A stretch of DNA of 64,000 nt. It comes from Myxococcota bacterium. GTDB taxonomy: Bacteria > Myxococcota_A > UBA9160 > UBA6930. Below the pieces are notes generated by a model, which saw nothing but the letters and a program-made list of their open reading frames with translations, had not been told where the DNA came from and did no database searches. The position numbers and the translations under genes were made by a program. Location of the stretch: NCBI GenBank assembly GCA_965223705.1, contig OZ245015.1:288001-352000 (forward strand), written 5' to 3'. Shown piece by piece: positions 15,534-37,865 of the stretch. Positions within the stretch are counted from its first letter, which is position 1. The number at the start of each line of letters is the position of its first letter.

Positions 15534-16646
15534 TCAGCCCGTTTCGGGCTCGTGTTGGAACTGTGCGTAGATCTCCAAGAGCCCGGGGATCATCGCGACG
15601 CCCCAGGCTCCGAGGGCGAGCAGAACCCAATGCGTCGGTAGCAGCGCGAACGCCGCAACCCACGCAGCGACGAAGAGCGCGACCCGTCGCATCATCTTCC
15701 CGGAGTTCGCCGACGGCCTGTCGCCCGGCCGCCCGAGCGGGAACGCTTTCGGTCGCAAGAACCAGCCGTGCGCGAGCAGGAGAAGCAAGAAGTGCGGCCA
15801 GGAAAGCTCGTTTCCCGAGAGGACCGGGTTTTCGTCGAGCGGCGATTCGGCACCGTCGGCGAGACGCGCCTGCAATGCTTCCCAGGTGTACGTCGGGTCC
15901 GGTCGACCGCCCGCGCCGGACATGTTGTCGCGCGTCGGTCGGCAACGCCATCGGTAGAGGGGGCGGCCATCTTTCGCGAGGCCGAGGACCGCCGGTTGGT
16001 AGTAGCCCTTCGGATGACTCGCCCACGGACGGGAGCGCAAGTGCCCGTAGTTCTCGTTCGCGTAGATTTCGACGAGGCCCCGCTCGCGGCATATCTCGAG
16101 AATCTCGTGATGCGGGTCGCCGACGGCCGGGAAGCCGAATTCCCAGTCTTCCTCGGCTTCCGTCGCCAGATGCTGTGGTTCGCTCGTGATGGCGAAGACT
16201 TCGCCGCCCGCTTCGCGGATCTTGTCGACGACTCCGGACTTTCGGTAGCTCCGCAACTCGAAGCGACACGGAGGTCACCAGCGACCTCGGTAGAAGAGAA
16301 GGAGAATGAAGTTGTAGCGCTCGAGCTGAGCGTCGATCCACGTATGGCGGACACCCCGCGGAGGATCGAGTAGGGCGGGGATGGTTTCCGTCGGGTCCGC
16401 CTGAACAGCTTCCACTGAGAAGCCCGACCCGTTCGGCGTAACGCAAACTTGCTCGCGCAGGCACTGTTCGCCTTCGCAGAGGATCACACCGAATTCTCGC
16501 GGCTCACCCGGCGCGGCGGAAAGTGCGGTGGCCGTGTCGACGACGCCCGTCAGTCGAAACGCCGTGCCGCGCGTATCGTTCAACCACTGAACCGCGGCAG
16601 AAGCCGCCGGTTCGAGTGCTTTCGGGATTCCCTCGGGCTCGCCCAT
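15534..16646 (-). CDS. Predicted selenoprotein: AhpC/TSA-like redoxin with UxxC, extra N-terminal domain and C-terminal TM helices (370 aa; TGA at 16277-16275)
   Basis: ORFs 16275-16646 and 15534-16256 are in the same frame, separated only by TGA. They join as LLFYRGRW-U-PPCRFEL, followed by GGEVFAITSE, FPAVGDP and QPAVL. Confidence 0.85.
16239..16263 (-). promoter_or_regulatory. Candidate bacterial SECIS for the TGA at 16277
   Basis: mRNA +12 to +36 after UGA: lower stem UUCG/CGAA, AC bulge, upper stem AGUU/AGCU, apical loop GCGG. Confidence 0.55.
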
Positions 16647-29074: not shown

Positions 29075-31426
29075 ATGATCCCGCCGCAAATCATGGAAAC
29101 CGCCAAAGCTTCTCATTCCCGCGCGGATCGCGCTGTGGTCGCGTACGCCGAAGCCATCCTGCGCTGGCGCTGGCTCGTCATGGCGCTGGCCCTCGGAGTG
29201 GCCGCTTGCGCAGGCTATGGCGCGCGTTACGCCGTCGTCGTCTCGGACTACCGGTACGAGTTCACCGAAGGAAACCCCCAGCTGGTCGCGTTCGAAACGA
29301 TGGAACGCGTGTACGGCAAGAACGATACGGTGATCTTCTTCGTCGTGCCGGAAACCGGCGACGTGTTCAACCGGGAGACGCTGTCGGCGATCTATTGGTT
29401 GACCGAGGAAGCCTGGCAGCTTCCGTATTCGCGTCGCGTGGACTCCCTCGCGAACTATCAGCACACCGAAGCAGACGGCGATGACCTCGAAGTGATGGAT
29501 CTCATCGAGGATCCCGACGAGCTCGATTCCGCGGCGTTGGCGCGTCTACGCGATATCGCACTCTCCGAGCCCCAGCTCCGGGGTAGAGTCGTTCCCGCCG
29601 ACGGCTCGGGCACCTCGGTCGCTGTCACCATCCACTTCCCCGACGAAGGAAGCGGCCACGAACTCGCGCTCGCTTCGGAGGCGAGGAAGCTCGTCGCTCG
29701 AGCCGAGGAGCGGTTCCCCGGCCATCGCGTCGCATTGTCGGGTTTGGTTCCGTTTTCGGCCGCGTACGAAGAAGCGAGTCGCCACGACCTGGTGACGCTC
29801 GTGCCGCTGATGTACGCGGTGCTCGTCATCACGCTCTTCTTGTTCCTGCGATCGACCTGGGGAACCGTCGGGACCCTCATCGTCGCGGCGCTCTCAGCGA
29901 TCAGCGGTATGGGCTTGGGCTTTTGGGCCGGGATCCCGTTCACTCAGGGCGCTGCCGTCGCCCCGACCATTATTCTGACGATCGCGATCGCCGACGGCGT
30001 CCACATCCTCGTCACGTTCGTCAAGGAGCGTCGCAGCGGGCAGGATCATCACGCGGCTCTCGTCGAGAGCCTCCGCGTGAACTGGCAGCCCGTGTTCTTG
30101 ACGAGCCTCACCACGGTGATCGGCTTCTTGAGCCTGAACGCGAGCGATAGCAGCTGGTTCCGCGACCTCGGAAACTTCACGGCCCTGGGCGTGTGCGCCG
30201 CGTGGTTCTTCTCGGTCACGTTCTTGCCGGCGTTCGTGTCGCTCGTGCCGTATCCAATCCACGCCGAGCGACACGTCGGTGGGCTCTCGATGGAGCGCTA
30301 CGCGAACTGGATGATCGGGCATCGGCGGCCCATTCTCGGCGCGATGGTCATCCTTTTGGTCGTGATGGCTGTCCTGATACCGCGAATCGAGCTGAACGAC
30401 ACGTTCACCAGCATGTTCGACGAAGACGTGCCGTTTCGGCAGGACCTCGAGTTCATGTCCGAGCGCCTCCCCGGTATCTACATGTTCCAGTACTCGCTCG
30501 CTGCGGACGGATCCGATGAGATCAATGAACCGGTCTATTGGGAGCAACTCGAAACGTTCGTCGATTGGTTGCGCGCACAACCCGAAGTGACGCACGTGCA
30601 GATTCTCTCGGACACCATGAAGCGTCTCAACCGCAACATGCACGGTGATGATCCCAGTGCCTATCACCTCCCGACGGAGCGGGATCGCTCTGCGCAGTAT
30701 CTTCTGCTCTACGAGATGTCACTGCCCTACGGGCTCGACCTCAACAACCAGATCAACGTCGACAAGTCCGCCACGAAAGTGACGGTGACGATCCATTCGC
30801 TGTCGTCGAAGGAGATGCGCGAGTTCGACTACCGCATTCAAGCGTGGCTTCGTGAGAACGCGCCGCCGGCGATGCACGTCGCCGGGGCGAGCCCGACGTT
30901 GATGTTCGCGCACATGTCCGAGCGCAACGTGCAGGCCATGATCCGCGGCACGGCACTGGCGCTCGTGCTGATTTCCGCCATGTTGGCGATCTCGCTTCGG
31001 AGCGCGAAGCTTGGCTTGCTGAGCCTCATTCCGAACGTCGGCCCAACGGTGATCGCTTTCGGCGTCTGGGCGCTTCTCATCGGCCAAGCGGGGTTCTCGG
31101 TCTCGATGGTCTCCGCGTGCAGTCTCGGAATTATCGTCGATGCCACCGTGCACTTTCTGAGCAAATACCTGCGCGCGCGGCGGGAGCGGGCGGCGAACGC
31201 CGAAGAGGCGGTGCGCTACGCCATCTCGACCGTCGGCGCAGCGCTGTGGATCACGTTTCTGGTGCTCATTGTCGGCTTTGCGGTTCTCAGCCTGTCACCG
31301 ATCGAGACGAACTCGCTCTTCGGTTTGATGATTGCGATTACGATCGGCGCCGCTCTGCTGACTTCGTTCTTGCTGTTGCCGACGCTGTTGATCCAGATCG
31401 AGGGCGAGGAAGGCCGCCTGGTCTAG
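29075..31426 (+). CDS. MMPL/RND-family transporter
   Basis: Two repeats of TM + periplasmic domain + 5 TM; IAIADGVH, LTSLTT, GIIVDATVHF. Confidence 0.9.
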   Translation: MIPPQIMETAKASHSRADRAVVAYAEAILRWRWLVMALALGVAACAGYGARYAVVVSDYRYEFTEGNPQLVAFETMERVYGKNDTVIFFVVPETGDVFNRETLSAIYWLTEEAWQLPYSRRVDSLANYQHTEADGDDLEVMDLIEDPDELDSAALARLRDIALSEPQLRGRVVPADGSGTSVAVTIHFPDEGSGHELALASEARKLVARAEERFPGHRVALSGLVPFSAAYEEASRHDLVTLVPLMYAVLVITLFLFLRSTWGTVGTLIVAALSAISGMGLGFWAGIPFTQGAAVAPTIILTIAIADGVHILVTFVKERRSGQDHHAALVESLRVNWQPVFLTSLTTVIGFLSLNASDSSWFRDLGNFTALGVCAAWFFSVTFLPAFVSLVPYPIHAERHVGGLSMERYANWMIGHRRPILGAMVILLVVMAVLIPRIELNDTFTSMFDEDVPFRQDLEFMSERLPGIYMFQYSLAADGSDEINEPVYWEQLETFVDWLRAQPEVTHVQILSDTMKRLNRNMHGDDPSAYHLPTERDRSAQYLLLYEMSLPYGLDLNNQINVDKSATKVTVTIHSLSSKEMREFDYRIQAWLRENAPPAMHVAGASPTLMFAHMSERNVQAMIRGTALALVLISAMLAISLRSAKLGLLSLIPNVGPTVIAFGVWALLIGQAGFSVSMVSACSLGIIVDATVHFLSKYLRARRERAANAEEAVRYAISTVGAALWITFLVLIVGFAVLSLSPIETNSLFGLMIAITIGAALLTSFLLLPTLLIQIEGEEGRLV

Positions 31427-31434
31427 TGATGGGC

Positions 31435-33342
31435 TTACGATGAGCTCCCGAGAGACTCGCGCAATTCCTCGAGCTCGCTCCACCGCTCGTAAGCGGCTTC
31501 GAGCTCGGCGGCTAGAGCCGTGACCCGATCGTGCACCTGCGCCTGGTCCTCGGCGCTGCCCTCGTAGAAGGAAGGTTCGCTCAACCGGGCGACGAGTTCT
31601 CGGTGTTCGGCCTCTAGCCTTTCGATGCGTTCGGGAAGCTGCTCGAGTTCACGCGCGGCCTTGAATCCGAGCTTCGTGGGTTTGCTCGCCTTCTTCGTCG
31701 GTTCTTTCGGCGTGCGCGCGGTGGGATCCGCAGCGGCGACCGCTTCCACCGGGCGCGTACGCAACCAATCGGAGTAGCCGCCGACGTATTCCCGCACCCG
31801 GCCCTCCCCCTCGAACACGAGCGTCGAAGTCACCACGTTGTCGAGAAACGCCCGGTCGTGGGAGACGAGAAGGACCGTTCCGCTGTACTCGGCGAGGAGT
31901 TCTTCAAGAAGTTCGAGGGTTTCCAGATCGAGATCGTTTGTCGGCTCGTCGAGTACGAGCAGGTTCGCGGGTTTCGCGAAGAGCTGGGCGAGGAGAACCC
32001 GATTCTGCTCACCGCCGGAGAGTGCCTTCACTGGGGTGCGAGCCCGCTCTGGACTGAAGAGAAAATCCTGCAGGTAGCCGATGACGTGTCGCCGCGCGCC
32101 GCCGATCTCGATGAACTCGGCACCCCCGGCGATGTTGTCCGCGACCGAGCGTTCGAAGTCCAACGAAGCGCGCAGTTGATCGTAATAGGCGACCTCGAGC
32201 TTTGTGCCGAGATGAATGTCGCCGGAACTGGGTTCGAGCTGCCCTAGAAGTAAACGCAAGAGCGTGGTCTTTCCGACGCCGTTCGGTCCGACCAGCCCGA
32301 CGCGGTCGCCGCGCATGATGCGCATCGAAAAATCCCGGACGACCGGTGGTTCGCCTTCCCCCCATGAGAAAGAGACGCTTCGAGCATCGGCCACGAGCTT
32401 GCCCGATGTGCGTCCCTCGTCGAGGGAGAGGCGAACGTCACCCTCGACTTCGCGGCGGCGCTTTCGCTCTTCCCGCAGTTTGAGGAGTGCGCGCACACGC
32501 CCCTCGTTGCGGGTCCGCCTCGCTTTGATGCCCTGTCGGATCCACGCTTCTTCCTGTGCGAGCTTCTTGTCGAACACGGCGGCGTGACGCGCTTCTTCCG
32601 CCAACGCCGCGGCTTTCTTTTTCAGGTAAGCCTCATAGTCGCCCGGCCACGAAGTGAGCACGCCGCGATCGAGCTCGACGATGCGTGTCGCCAAGCGCTT
32701 GAGAAGCGCTCGGTCATGGGTGACGAAGAGCACGCCGCCGCGCAGGGTCAGCAGCTGCTCTTCCAGCCACTGGATGACCTCGATGTCGAGGTGGTTCGTC
32801 GGTTCGTCGAGCAGCAAGAGATCGGGTTCGCGGACCAACGCCTGGGCGAGAGAGACGCGTCGTCGCCAACCCCCCGACAGCTCCGCAACACGTGTGTCGG
32901 CGGGGAGCTCGAGCCTCGCAATCATCTGATCGACGCGCTGGTTGCGGCTCCAACCGTTACAGGCATCGATCTCGTGCTGGAGACGCTCGAGCTCTTTCAT
33001 CGCCGAAGCGTCGTCCGTTACCGCCAGGGATACGCGGTGAAACTCCGCGAGCAACTGGCCGATGTCGGCCAACCCCGCCGCGACGACGTCGAACACCGTG
33101 GCGGCAGCGTCCGCCGGGAGCTCCTGCGCGAGGCGTGCGACGACGAGCTCAGGCTGGCGCCACACCTCGCCGGCATCGGGCTGCACCGATCCGTCGACGA
33201 GTTTGAGGAGGGTCGATTTGCCCGCGCCATTGCGTCCGATCAGGCAGACCCGCTCGCCCGCGTCGACCTGGAACTCGACTTCGTGGAGGAGGGGATGTTG
33301 CCCGAAAGAGATCGAGACGCGGTCGAAACTGACGAGGGGCAT
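31435..33342 (-). CDS. uup: ABC-F ATPase, Uup type
   Basis: Two ABC domains (GRNGAGKST, LSGG, LDEPTN), linker WIRQGIKARRTRNEGRVR and C-terminal coiled coil. Confidence 0.9.
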   Translation of the reverse strand: MPLVSFDRVSISFGQHPLLHEVEFQVDAGERVCLIGRNGAGKSTLLKLVDGSVQPDAGEVWRQPELVVARLAQELPADAAATVFDVVAAGLADIGQLLAEFHRVSLAVTDDASAMKELERLQHEIDACNGWSRNQRVDQMIARLELPADTRVAELSGGWRRRVSLAQALVREPDLLLLDEPTNHLDIEVIQWLEEQLLTLRGGVLFVTHDRALLKRLATRIVELDRGVLTSWPGDYEAYLKKKAAALAEEARHAAVFDKKLAQEEAWIRQGIKARRTRNEGRVRALLKLREERKRRREVEGDVRLSLDEGRTSGKLVADARSVSFSWGEGEPPVVRDFSMRIMRGDRVGLVGPNGVGKTTLLRLLLGQLEPSSGDIHLGTKLEVAYYDQLRASLDFERSVADNIAGGAEFIEIGGARRHVIGYLQDFLFSPERARTPVKALSGGEQNRVLLAQLFAKPANLLVLDEPTNDLDLETLELLEELLAEYSGTVLLVSHDRAFLDNVVTSTLVFEGEGRVREYVGGYSDWLRTRPVEAVAAADPTARTPKEPTKKASKPTKLGFKAARELEQLPERIERLEAEHRELVARLSEPSFYEGSAEDQAQVHDRVTALAAELEAAYERWSELEELRESLGSSS

Positions 33343-33357
33343 CGGTTCTGCGGGCGG

Positions 33358-34428
33358 TCAGTCCGAACCGGGTACTTCGCAGGCTTGATCGAGATCGATC
33401 TCGACGGTCACCGCGCGGTTGCGATGAGGCCCGGCACACCACGTCGGAATGGCTACGGAATAGAGCCCGCCGCCCCCCGCGACAGCAACCAGGACGTCGT
33501 CGGGTGAGTGGAAGCACCGAACGACGTCGCGGACCTTGCCGATGCCGATCGCTCCCGTGCGCGCGAGGTCTTCGGCGGTGTTCTCGGCCCGCTCGTAGAT
33601 CGCCTGCGCAACGGATTCACGCGTCAAACCGACGCTCGCAAGCACGTTCGCATGCGAGGGGTTGAGCAGGACCATCGCCGCACCGCCTGAAAGCGCGGCG
33701 TTGTTCGTAGCGGCGTTTGCGAACGCACCGGCGAGAGACGTGAGGAACCGGTCGGCGCTCTCCGAGTCCCCGTGCTCGAGCACTCCGATGACGGAGTGAG
33801 GCGCTTCACCGCCCATCACGGTGACGGTCGACTGTTCTGCGCTGAAACCCCGCGCGACGTGAAACGGTGGAAAAGGGCTTTCTTCCTCGGCTTCCGCCAA
33901 GCAGTACGTGAACTTTCCCGGGTGACCCAGCAGCGCCATATCCGACGTGCCGGGCCGACCGCCCCCGATGTTGATCATCGCAAGTCGTAACGCCCGGCCG
34001 ATCGAGGCGTTGGCACGGTGGCCTGGACCGAGCGCGCCGTAGCCCGACGCGATCCCGCCGCACCACGAACGCGCGGGGCCGTTCACCAGGATAAAGGGCG
34101 CCGTGTCGTGGGTGGTGGCCTGCATTTCCGTCAAATCGAACTCGGGGTCCATGATGGCGCGCGCGGCGGCGAGAACGACCGGCATATGATCCGGCGTGCA
34201 ACCTGCCATCACCGCGGCGATCGCTAATTTTTCGACGCTGCAGGCGCCGAGCGCGGGGCCCATCTCGCCGAGTACAAGGTCGCCATCGAGGAGACTTGCG
34301 AGGATCATGCGCTCGACCCGCGCTTCGGTCGGGATCACGACCGGCAGCCCGTCGGTGCAGGCCATCTCGTGCAGTTCCTCGAGAGCAGACGCCTCGTCGA
34401 CGGCCTTGCGCCGCGCGCTCGCAATCAC
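33358..34428 (-). CDS. Uncharacterised protein of the family that accompanies UGSC proteins
   Basis: TDGLPVVIPT, AIAAVMAGC, QATT, GPGHRANASIGRALRL, VAGGGG. Start overlaps the UGSC stop (GTGA). Confidence 0.8.
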   Translation of the reverse strand: MIASARRKAVDEASALEELHEMACTDGLPVVIPTEARVERMILASLLDGDLVLGEMGPALGACSVEKLAIAAVMAGCTPDHMPVVLAAARAIMDPEFDLTEMQATTHDTAPFILVNGPARSWCGGIASGYGALGPGHRANASIGRALRLAMINIGGGRPGTSDMALLGHPGKFTYCLAEAEEESPFPPFHVARGFSAEQSTVTVMGGEAPHSVIGVLEHGDSESADRFLTSLAGAFANAATNNAALSGGAAMVLLNPSHANVLASVGLTRESVAQAIYERAENTAEDLARTGAIGIGKVRDVVRCFHSPDDVLVAVAGGGGLYSVAIPTWCAGPHRNRAVTVEIDLDQACEVPGSD

Positions 34429-34955
34429 GACGTCCCCTGAAACGCAGCGAGGATCTCGGGCTGGATGTCGCGCGCCACGCGCGTGTGCGCTTCGGCGCCG
34501 GTTCCGGCGACGGGATGGGGCAAACGGATGCGCGGGATGGCCGGCATGCCGACGGACCGCGCGATGAAGTTGCCCTGTTCGAGAAAATCGTCGGTGACCA
34601 GGGTGACCGCGGGAATGCCGCGGCGGGCGAGCTTGATGCCGTCACGCACGGTGCCGGTGGTGCAGCCGCCTCAGTGTCCGTAGGCGGCGACTACCGCCTG
34701 ACATTCCTTGACGATCTCTTCGAGCATGTTGTCGCGAACGACGATGGACGCATCGCCTTTGTCGTAGCGGTAGAAACGGATCTCGGGGTTCGCCTGACCG
34801 AGTGCCTCGGCCACGCGATCGAGAAAGTTCACGGAATCCGGGAAACCATTCGCCAAGAGACCGATATCCACGGGGCCCCGGGTGACGTCGATCCGGAGCG
34901 CGTAGGGCTCGATGGGAGCGCTCGGTTCGGCACGAGGGTCGAGAAATTCAATCAT
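34425..34955 (-). CDS. Predicted UGSC-family selenoprotein (176 aa; TGA at 34673-34671 = codon 95)
   Basis: MIEFLDP...IGLLANG...VVAAYGH-U-GGCTTGTVRDGIKLARRGIPAV...LPHP reads in one frame across the TGA. Confidence 0.88.
34635..34655 (-). promoter_or_regulatory. Candidate bacterial SECIS for the TGA at 34673
   Basis: mRNA +20 to +32 forms CCGU-[GCGUG]-ACGG; the loop starts with G at +24. The stem is short. Confidence 0.4.
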
Positions 34956-34984
34956 CGGTGCGCCTCCTCGCGGAGAGCATACCA

Positions 34985-35830
34985 CTAGGTTTCGACGACG
35001 AGCTTTCCGAGAGGGGCGCCGCAGTGCTTGCAGTAGCGGGCGTCGTTTTCGTGCCCTTCGGTCAGGCACTCGAAACACCGCCTCGCGGTGGCTCGGTGAG
35101 CCGCTGCGGCGGTCTCGACGATCTCGGCGGTGACGATCCCCGTCGGCACCGCGATGATGCTGTAGCCCAGGATCATCACGACGGTGGCCAGCGTCTTGCC
35201 GGGCACGGTTTGGGGCGCGAGGTCGCCATAGCCGACCGTCGTCATCGTCACCACCGCCCAATAGACCGAGGTGGGGATACTTGTAAAACCGTGCTCCTCG
35301 CCCTCGATGATGTACATCGCGGTGCCGAGAATCGTGACCAAGATCGTGATGGTGCCGAGAAACACGCCGACTTTGTGGCGGCTGTCCGCCAGGGCGCGGC
35401 GTAGAATGCTCGCCTCGCCCAGGAACTGCGCGAGCTTGAACACGCGAAAAATGCGCAGCAACCGAAGCGCGCGGATCACCAACAGGTGTTCCGCCCCGGG
35501 GACGAACAGGCTCAAGTAGGTCGGGAGGATCGCGATGAGATCTACGATTCCGAAGAAGCTTCGCGCGTAGCGAACCGGGAACGGGACACAGATCAAACGA
35601 ACGACGTATTCGATGGTGAAGAGGACCGTGAAGGTCCACTCGGCGATATCGAGTGCGCGCCCGTAGTTTTGGCGGATTGAAGCCACACTCTCGAGCATGA
35701 CCGCCAGGACGCTGGCCGAGATCGCGAGGAGGAGCGCAACATCGAACGCTTTTCCGGCCGGCGTGTCGGTGCCGAAAATGATGACCTGGGCCGCTTCGCG
35801 CCAGGAAGCGCCGTCCTTCGCTTCACTCAC
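34985..35830 (-). CDS. Voltage-gated potassium channel (6TM)
   Basis: S4 segment RALRLLRIFRVFK, filter TMTTVGYGD, C-terminal CxxC...CxxC. Confidence 0.92.
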   Translation of the reverse strand: MSEAKDGASWREAAQVIIFGTDTPAGKAFDVALLLAISASVLAVMLESVASIRQNYGRALDIAEWTFTVLFTIEYVVRLICVPFPVRYARSFFGIVDLIAILPTYLSLFVPGAEHLLVIRALRLLRIFRVFKLAQFLGEASILRRALADSRHKVGVFLGTITILVTILGTAMYIIEGEEHGFTSIPTSVYWAVVTMTTVGYGDLAPQTVPGKTLATVVMILGYSIIAVPTGIVTAEIVETAAAAHRATARRCFECLTEGHENDARYCKHCGAPLGKLVVET

Positions 35831-35940
35831 CCGTCAGCTCGCGACGGCACCGTGGGTGCGCTTGTTGATGCGTCTCTTCCACGCGGACACTCCTGGCTGG
35901 AATCCGGAGTGTAGCGACCGAATTCCAGCCAGGGGTGACT

Positions 35941-36393
35941 TCAGGGCGCGAGTGTACTCGTCTCTATCGGCCGATCCGGTTCGGGAAGCCGGACGGTGAC
36001 GTCCGGTCGGTCGGCCGAAACGAGGGCTTCGAACGAGTCCCCTGGGTCCACGACGTCTACGCGCACGTAGTGTTTGTGCCCTTTTCCGAGGGTGTCGAAA
36101 ACTCTTAGTTCGACCCGCAGTTCCTGACCGGTTGCCCGCTGAAAGCGAGCGACGTACTCGCCGGGGAGGGTCCTTGGCGGGCCCGTCTTCACGAGAGGAC
36201 GACCGTCGATGGTCAATCGGATCGGCTCGGCGCCGAGATCCGCCGCGGCGTCGCGGTGATCGCCCGCGTCGATCCGGAAGACCACATCAATCGTCTCCGA
36301 CCGGACCACGACGTGCGAGTCGCTGAAACCCGGGTCGTGGGCTTGGGAAGCTCCGGTCAGCAGGAGCAGAATGAGCAGGGTTCGCAGTGTCAT
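35941..36393 (-). CDS. Secreted protein resembling the soluble N-terminal part of HupE/UreJ-type proteins
   Basis: Signal peptide ending SQA-HDPGFS, GHKHY motif; directly downstream of the DUF4331 gene. Confidence 0.5.
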   Translation of the reverse strand: MTLRTLLILLLLTGASQAHDPGFSDSHVVVRSETIDVVFRIDAGDHRDAAADLGAEPIRLTIDGRPLVKTGPPRTLPGEYVARFQRATGQELRVELRVFDTLGKGHKHYVRVDVVDPGDSFEALVSADRPDVTVRLPEPDRPIETSTLAP

Positions 36394-36407
36394 CGAACGC
36401 CCCCGAG

Positions 36408-37865
36408 CTAGTTGTGGTGACCGTGGTTGCGGCCGTTCAAGGGTGTCGCACCGTAGGGAAACACCTTGTTGTACGCGATGTCGTTCTCACTGACGTTGTC
36501 GATGCCGTCGGCGACGACCAGTTCGGCACCCGGATCCGCGAGGTCGTTGATGACGGCCGTGACGCCGATGTCGACCACGTCATCCCCAAAACGCCGGCCA
36601 TTGGGCCATCCACCGGCGACGGGTCCACCGGTCAAGCGACTCATCAGCGTGTCGCCTCCGAAGACGCTCAAGCGAGAGAAGCCCGGGTCGTCGGGATTGG
36701 TCGGGTGGTTCGGTCCCCCGCCTGCGAGGCGCGCCGCCGGCGTCGAAAGATCGATTCGAATCACGTCCGGGATGAAGATCCCGGCCAGGTCCTCTCTGCC
36801 GTTCTCGGGAGCGACCGGCGCCTGGAAGACCAGTGCGTTCACGAGGCGGGCCAACTCGGGTTCAGTGGCGTACTTCTTGAACAGGCTGCGATCGAAACGC
36901 GGAGACGTTCGGTTGTAACGGTCTTTGTCCTCCAGCGCGACGAAGCCCTCGTTGAAGAGCGGGTTCCCCTGGCGACCGACCTGGACCCAACGCGCGCGAT
37001 GGTGGCGGTGACGCAGCACGCTTTCCGTCTTGCGACTCGTCGTGGCGTGGATGCCCACCACCTGCATGTCCCCGCCGATCTCTCGGATCGGGATGTCGAG
37101 AGCGATCATGTGAACGTTGAAGCCGCCTTGGCTGTCGAAGCGATCCTCGCGCGTCCGGAGCGACAGCGCGTCGAACACGGCCTGGATATCGGCATAGAAT
37201 CCGTCGTCACGCTGACCCGCAAACGCGACGTAACCGTCCGCCAAGTGGGCAATCGATTGCTGCGTGTACCGGTCGAGCTGGCCGTCGCGGCCGACACCGT
37301 CCTTGGCAGGCGATTCACCGTTGTCCCCGCGATTGTAGAATGGCGTCACGAGGCCCTGGTTGTTGGGCGGAACGATCCCCGTGCCGAGGAGCGACACGTG
37401 TTCCTTGCCCGACAAGCCGCGGCGAACGACCCGACTCACGGTGTAACGCTGCACCATGTTTTGGCCGTCGTCGCCGACGTCTCGGATGACTCCCTGGAAC
37501 GCTTGCAGAATCGTGCGCTGGTTCCGGAACTCGGTGTCGAACTCGAAGCGGTAGGTGATGTCCGTTCCGCCGCGCTCGACGCGTCGCCCTTTCGAGAGAT
37601 GGATCTCGTAGCGGACCCGATCGTCGAACCGGTAGTTGTTCGGACCGATTCCGGGCTCTTCGAAGGGATAGACCGCGAGGGCGGTGGATAGATATTTCTC
37701 GCCGTCTCGCTCTGAAACGAACGCATAGACGTCCGTGGTATTAGCCGCATCATCGAGTGTCAGCAGCGGGGCATCCATATGGCTCGAAGCGTTGGCGACG
37801 GGTGCCAGAAAAACCAGCAGAGCGGTGGCAAGCCACGCAAAGCCAGCCGGTCGTCGTGTTCTCAT
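36408..37865 (-). CDS. DUF4331 family secreted protein
   Basis: ASSHMDAP...DVYAF, FAGQRDDGF, QVGRQGNP, GWPNGRRFGDDVVD, FPY. Confidence 0.88.
   Translation of the reverse strand: MRTRRPAGFAWLATALLVFLAPVANASSHMDAPLLTLDDAANTTDVYAFVSERDGEKYLSTALAVYPFEEPGIGPNNYRFDDRVRYEIHLSKGRRVERGGTDITYRFEFDTEFRNQRTILQAFQGVIRDVGDDGQNMVQRYTVSRVVRRGLSGKEHVSLLGTGIVPPNNQGLVTPFYNRGDNGESPAKDGVGRDGQLDRYTQQSIAHLADGYVAFAGQRDDGFYADIQAVFDALSLRTREDRFDSQGGFNVHMIALDIPIREIGGDMQVVGIHATTSRKTESVLRHRHHRARWVQVGRQGNPLFNEGFVALEDKDRYNRTSPRFDRSLFKKYATEPELARLVNALVFQAPVAPENGREDLAGIFIPDVIRIDLSTPAARLAGGGPNHPTNPDDPGFSRLSVFGGDTLMSRLTGGPVAGGWPNGRRFGDDVVDIGVTAVINDLADPGAELVVADGIDNVSENDIAYNKVFPYGATPLNGRNHGHHN

Follow-up and report, generated by a model that had tools for sequence, protein, structure and literature searches.

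Our analysis of a 64,000-nt stretch of DNA from a Myxococcota bacterium (the window; positions 288,001 to 352,000 of contig OZ245015.1) identified a UGSC-family selenoprotein gene whose end overlaps the gene for a 356-residue partner protein. By analogy with known enzymes, we consider it on balance probable that the two products make up a two-part selenium-dependent reductase related to selenoprotein B of the glycine and proline reductases. This reading is supported by a match of the UGSC family to GrdB and PrdB that places selenocysteine on selenocysteine (U on U), by the near-constant adjacency of the partner, and by fusions of UGSC with the partner. A preliminary description of the region, made from the sequence alone, had recognized the UGSC selenoprotein and suggested a selenoprotein-rich organism, both of which held up, and the selenocysteine (Sec) machinery proved complete; its thioredoxin-like label was not supported, it gave the motif variant more weight than we would, and it missed the partner gene at 34428-33358.

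The UGSC gene lies on the reverse strand (34425..34955), encoding 176 aa from an ATG at 34955 to a TGA stop at 34427-34425. A Shine-Dalgarno-like GAGGAGG, read from the sequence, occupies 34963..34969 with a 7-nt spacer to the ATG; a search of 31300-36500 turned up no sigma-70-like promoter. Translation runs ...AAYGH-TGA-GGCTTGTVRDGIKLARRGIP... across the sole internal TGA (34671..34673), which is codon 95, the predicted selenocysteine and the first residue of a U-G-G-C motif at 34662..34673. In the mechanical ORF list, residues 1 to 94 are joined to a 322-aa shadow frame (34671..35639) that overlies the K+ channel gene at 34985..35830. The start codon, ribosome binding site, read-through frame, motif and faulty fusion had all been described beforehand, and each is confirmed in the sequence. 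The proposed family membership likewise stood up to an HMM comparison across the junction: the read-through product matched the Pfam UGSC profile PF24696 at 144.6 bits (gathering cut-off 25) over residues 4-173, covering the full profile (2-171 of 172), and the halves before and after the TGA fell in register on profile positions 2-92 and 94-171. When contig C1 was scanned by codon usage, this TGA ranked first of 278 TGA codons with coding-like flanks. The gene thus shares with the UGSC family (PF24696; NF041046; the family as presented in PMC2398784) a full-length profile match, Sec or Cys at the same site, a UxxC arrangement and linkage to the 'Unknown_1' protein. It differs in its motif, which keeps the U, G and C of the name-giving U/C-G-S-C but has Gly (codon 34667-34665) in place of Ser, in a score of 106.8 bits against the NCBIfam equivalog NF041046, under the curated cut-off of 125, and in its approximately 25% identity to the two other UGSC copies in the genome.

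The UGA at codon 95 is almost certainly read as selenocysteine, judging from comparative sequence evidence. Of 38 GTDB loci, 37 reach the Sec site, and every one of these carries TGA. Among 111 protein homologues, from a search limited to lengths 96-308, the site is CGSC in 19 and WGSC in one, is uncovered in six, and lies immediately beyond the end of the other 85. Gene finders evidently truncate the family at the UGA, so calling 34955–34425 as one gene is an annotation fix. The Cys/Sec pairs that the preliminary description had proposed to look for are therefore present, in 19 homologues, and the gene shows the pattern by which bacterial selenoproteins are recognized: an in-frame UGA that lines up with a Cys of homologues and is flanked by conserved coding sequence. 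The assembly (95% complete, two contigs) also encodes a tRNA-Sec (RF01852, 78.2 bits) and SelA, SelB and SelD (TIGR00474, TIGR00475 and TIGR00476, all above cut-off); absence of the tRNA or of SelB had been named beforehand as grounds for abandoning the selenoprotein call. There is a very slight chance that the TGA is instead a nonsense mutation or an assembly error and the locus a pseudogene or split gene. Such a reading can appeal to the case being one of sequence, but it would have to accommodate a TGA that all 37 relatives keep and that Cys replaces in homologues, frozen synonymous sites 3' of the TGA, and the complete Sec machinery. The SelD gene (G000:C1:22501-23403) lies inside a 736-aa open frame, an apparent fusion to a putative N-terminal oxidoreductase domain that resembles the Ndh-SelD fusions noted in the relevant part of PMC2398784.

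Those frozen synonymous sites lie in codons 100-104, an unbroken run of five fourfold-degenerate codons whose third bases never vary among 40 loci spanning 46-76% GC. By comparison, at 147 other fourfold sites in the UGSC gene and its partner the commonest base has a mean frequency of 0.53 and a maximum of 0.82. Synonymous constraint here is clear, the exact hairpin structure less so, and the frozen block likely marks a predicted SECIS element. The candidate upper hairpin (34639..34657, reverse strand) comprises six pairs and a 5-nt loop with G as its second base, 20 nt past the UGA. This geometry fits the bacterial consensus as stated in PMC13188914: a loop of 3-9 nt, a stem of 4-16 bp, G in the first two loop positions, and a distance of 16-37 nt from the UGA. 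In the alignment 99% of the hairpin cells are paired, and the only covariation is a C-G to U-A change that two sister sequences share and that counts as one event. The hairpin is not more stable than shuffled sequences by minimum free energy (z +1.88), and RNAalifold predicted a different, weak structure in its place. Other UGSC subfamilies (L060-L088) carry the partner upstream and a seemingly different, longer hairpin after the UGA, suggesting that SECIS form and gene order vary among UGSC subfamilies.

A single base separates the UGGC form from the codon most common in the family. Ser occupies the variant position in all 37 close relatives, in 29 of 29 other-subfamily loci from related genomes, in all 19 Cys homologues, and in both other UGSC copies of the same genome. 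Contigs from three sequencing runs (X1, X2 and X3), which all stem from a single study and might themselves be where the genome came from, show no other letter at the Gly codon. A scan of metagenome contigs that targeted UGGC only, and so yields no UGGC:UGSC ratio, recovered three further loci (L089, L090 and L091), 45-66% identical, intact, each followed by the partner and with a conserved hairpin. A quick tree needs at least two changes, and one origin is still compatible with it. The variant is thus real, rare, recurrent and, on the sequences compared, probably tolerated; tolerance is supported both by these three intact loci and by the equivalent position in GrdB/PrdB-like proteins, which may be T, V, D, F or M. 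An explanation of the Ser to Gly change through a longer lower SECIS stem was not supported: 25 of 34 sequences do not form the pair in question, and shuffled sequences do as well as the structure taken as a whole. In the literature searched, which did not extend to subscription papers, UGGC is unmentioned in connection with selenocysteine or selenoproteins.

The change could matter since Ser is otherwise invariant, and this copy might be a real selenoprotein gene whose activity UGGC has impaired or whose specificity it has shifted. We regard this as highly improbable. Invariance of Ser in all other relatives examined speaks for it, as do the two further UGSC loci in the genome, which could cover the function; the three other intact UGGC loci with partner and hairpin, their minimum of two changes (a single origin being possible), and the intact remainder of the gene all argue the other way. 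We view the change as probably near-neutral, most likely leaving the proposed UGSC chemistry intact. The variant is in itself minor, and the main interest lies in the partner gene and the GrdB/PrdB link.

The partner gene (33358..34428, reverse strand; 'Unknown_1'/DGLP family) begins with a GTG that overlaps the UGSC stop as GTGA. Neither Pfam nor NCBIfam gave a match to its product. Its family numbers 4,487 representatives at 50% identity. Of 38 loci, 36 have it 3' of UGSC and two stop at a contig edge, and it is the only widely shared neighbor of UGSC. It also adjoins all three UGSC copies of this genome and all three other UGGC loci. Among other-subfamily UGSC loci of related genomes, the partner lies within 1.5 kb in 21 of 29, and none was found in the fetched 1.5-kb flanks of the other eight. 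A UGSC-like segment is fused to the partner in 40 of 150 partner representatives, at either end. When 36 long representatives were chosen by length, the additional segment was UGSC in 20, redoxin in three, Pyr_redox_2 in one and CoA-transferase III in one, with nothing matched in 11. The connection is not new: Fig. S1A of Zhang and Gladyshev 2008 (PMC2398784) already shows a UGSC/Unknown_1 fusion, which put the link on record in that year. By eye, the Unknown_1 alignment block in that figure, including two marine gammaproteobacterial rows, corresponds to our partner from residue ~69. The arrangement here differs in that UGSC and partner are separate, the partner being stand-alone and translationally coupled.

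Other neighbors offer no clue to a substrate, for none but the partner is conserved: the K+ channel, ABC-F and other window genes do not recur beside the pair, and there is no conserved neighbor of the GrdA/GrdC or PrdA kind, with which selenoprotein B carries out the reductive cleavage of an amino-acid C-N bond. The partner itself has conserved Cys77 and Cys176, as well as conserved His and acidic residues; D26, T106, N140 and E179 are among its conserved positions. Its model is confident (pLDDT 95.8), but fold searches turned up nothing clear (Foldseek best E 2.7e-4, TM 0.28, rmsd 14.7; VIA-align best Z 3.6), and a PDB sequence search with the partner profile gave no hit; such poor matches do not establish a new fold. 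One partner copy elsewhere in the genome (L143:5309-6865; G000:C1:2904808-2906364), directly upstream of the third UGSC copy, carries an N-terminal redoxin-like CxxC extension that matched a small redoxin profile, with no Pfam match at 1e-5. That third UGSC copy (G000:C1:2906374-2906970; L143:6875-7471; also L011) appears frameshifted in its N-terminal half, its ATG frame differing from the frame of the UGSC motif, through either an assembly indel or a real break.

UGSC has been listed as of unknown function (in the relevant passages of PMC1976440 and PMC9312934) and labelled as having a likely Trx-like fold (in those of PMC2398784 and PMC13188914). The AlphaFold2 model of UGSC (pLDDT 94.8) instead has five alternating strands and helices, U95 being predicted at or just after the end of strand 3 and C98 within the opening turn of the helix that follows. 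Structural matches listed were flavodoxin-, receiver- and Rossmann-like, the best at Z 11.7 (rmsd 3.0, 125 aligned). UGSC is thus predicted to be a flavodoxin/Rossmann-like alpha/beta domain, a common arrangement that indicates no function. A PDB sequence search found nothing significant (best E 0.22), and matches in the ESM Atlas were to unnamed clusters, apart from one, at 0.89, of whose members 41% carry UGSC. Thioredoxin-type Pfam families gave no match. Thioredoxin-fold UxxC selenoproteins (Prx-like, Trx-like) share with UGSC the UxxC at a helix start, but differ from its predicted flavodoxin-like topology.

Profile comparisons point toward GrdB and PrdB. The GrdB model TIGR01917 matched 15 of 55 UGSC family members weakly at E≤1 (best 5.8e-4), while GrdF, GrdH and PrdB models gave weaker matches. 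When the UGSC profile was compared by hhalign with one of 17 GrdB/PrdB-like proteins, both being shallow, the probability was 86.9% (E 4.2e-6) for 64 columns in which U meets U and C meets C; a control alignment of 10 redoxin (thioredoxin-fold) sequences gave 0.15%. With the flavodoxin-like structural matches, this contrast leaves the published Trx-like label, and the preliminary description's use of it, unsupported. The likeness to GrdB, GrdF and GrdH (glycine, sarcosine and betaine reductase) and to PrdB (D-proline reductase) consists of a strand-UxxC-helix-strand arrangement and a downstream 'PHP' turn. According to the pertinent part of PMC13188914, GrdB and PrdB are Sec subunits of multi-part enzymes, as we propose for UGSC. 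The differences are also substantial: UGSC lies far under the family cut-offs (11.9 bits against the 602 needed for TIGR01917), has no match to PF07355 at E≤0.01, aligns over 64 columns only, and has a partner with no family match to reductase subunits.

In the proposed two-part reductase, the UGA would be read as Sec through the downstream SECIS. By analogy with the mechanism given for GrdB and PrdB in PMC13188914, the partner would hold a small-molecule substrate for attack by the U95 selenolate. C98 would then resolve the resulting adduct, leaving a Se-S bond, and reduction by a carrier of the thioredoxin type would reset the U95/C98 site. Hints of an electron supply come from the partner fusions to redoxin (3 of 36) and Pyr_redox_2 (1 of 36) and from the CxxC extension on one copy in the genome. 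A more specific version, in which UGSC is the selenoprotein-B-like catalytic subunit of a mobile two-gene reductase rather than a thioredoxin-type antioxidant, and the partner supplies the substrate site, is one that we put forward tentatively.

Near the literature's default of a likely Trx-like redox protein (as worded in PMC2398784 and PMC13188914), UGSC could be a general thiol-disulfide or peroxide reductase, or an electron carrier for a partner that does the chemistry itself. We think this unlikely, though deserving of serious attention. It accords with the UxxC at a helix start, with the grouping of UGSC among redox selenoproteins in the relevant part of the GOS paper (PMC2398784), and with the conserved Cys77 and Cys176 of the partner; some partners bear a redoxin in place of UGSC, so that the two may be interchangeable reductants. 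Yet neither the model nor the profile of UGSC is thioredoxin-like, and the partner copy with its own CxxC extension still keeps a UGSC neighbor. An improbable further reading is that U and C act as ligands for a metal or metalloid, which the pair would bind or detoxify with no turnover of an organic substrate. Conserved Cys, His and acidic residues in the partner would suit that role, and metal binding is discussed for other bacterial selenoproteins in the passages concerned of PMC13188914, but the conserved surroundings of the pair include no gene for metal resistance or transport, and the homology points to GrdB/PrdB.

The genome as a whole is rich in selenoproteins, as the preliminary description had supposed. 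In at least 15 genes a Pfam domain extends across an in-frame TGA: the three UGSC copies and 12 of 20 candidates hand-picked by eye from the 278 of the codon-usage scan. These 12 comprise six redoxin-type genes, five of the AhpD/CMD family (L128 and L130-L133, with CxxU across the TGA) and one rhodanese (L135; G000:C1:1887004-1887840, C-L-U-S-G across the TGA). The segment after the rhodanese domain resembles, by eye, what we take to be a nucleotide cyclase domain. Adding four PrdB-like genes and the Prx-like gene of the window gives a lower bound of about 20. The Prx-like gene (15534-16646, reverse strand; W-U-P-P-C), the first UxxC selenoprotein of the window, has its TGA among the scan candidates. 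Stand-alone PrdB/GrdB-like genes with an in-frame TGA number four or five (G000:C1:150128-150544, 2137630-2137998, 2849232-2849453 and 3212799-3213224, and L126); their motifs are UPVC, UPFC, UPDC and, in one case without the second Cys, UPLD. Of 151 genomes of the class, 96 have similar matches. Record selenoprotein counts, as given in PMC13188914, are 57-63.

A sample of 400 other genomes from the phylum contained no exact junction pattern of this UGSC subfamily, and its relatives carry the labels Actinomycetota, Pseudomonadota, Spirochaetota and Myxococcota. Absence from that sample together with a spread over four phylum labels suggests that the UGSC-partner pair may be a mobile two-gene cassette. 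Two short contigs, labelled Paraglaciecola psychrophila (L035) and a Klebsiella pneumoniae MAG (L037), group on the tree with marine gammaproteobacterial sequences and are possibly mis-binned.

The GrdB/PrdB-like site argues against the thioredoxin-like label carried in reviews. A defined two-gene unit with such an active site and two confident models offers a concrete pair for purification and assay. If the proposed selenoprotein-B-like function is correct, the pair would add a third branch to those of the glycine and proline reductases. That branch would be widespread among aquatic bacteria, and UGGC would be a variant that recurs in it and tunes it.
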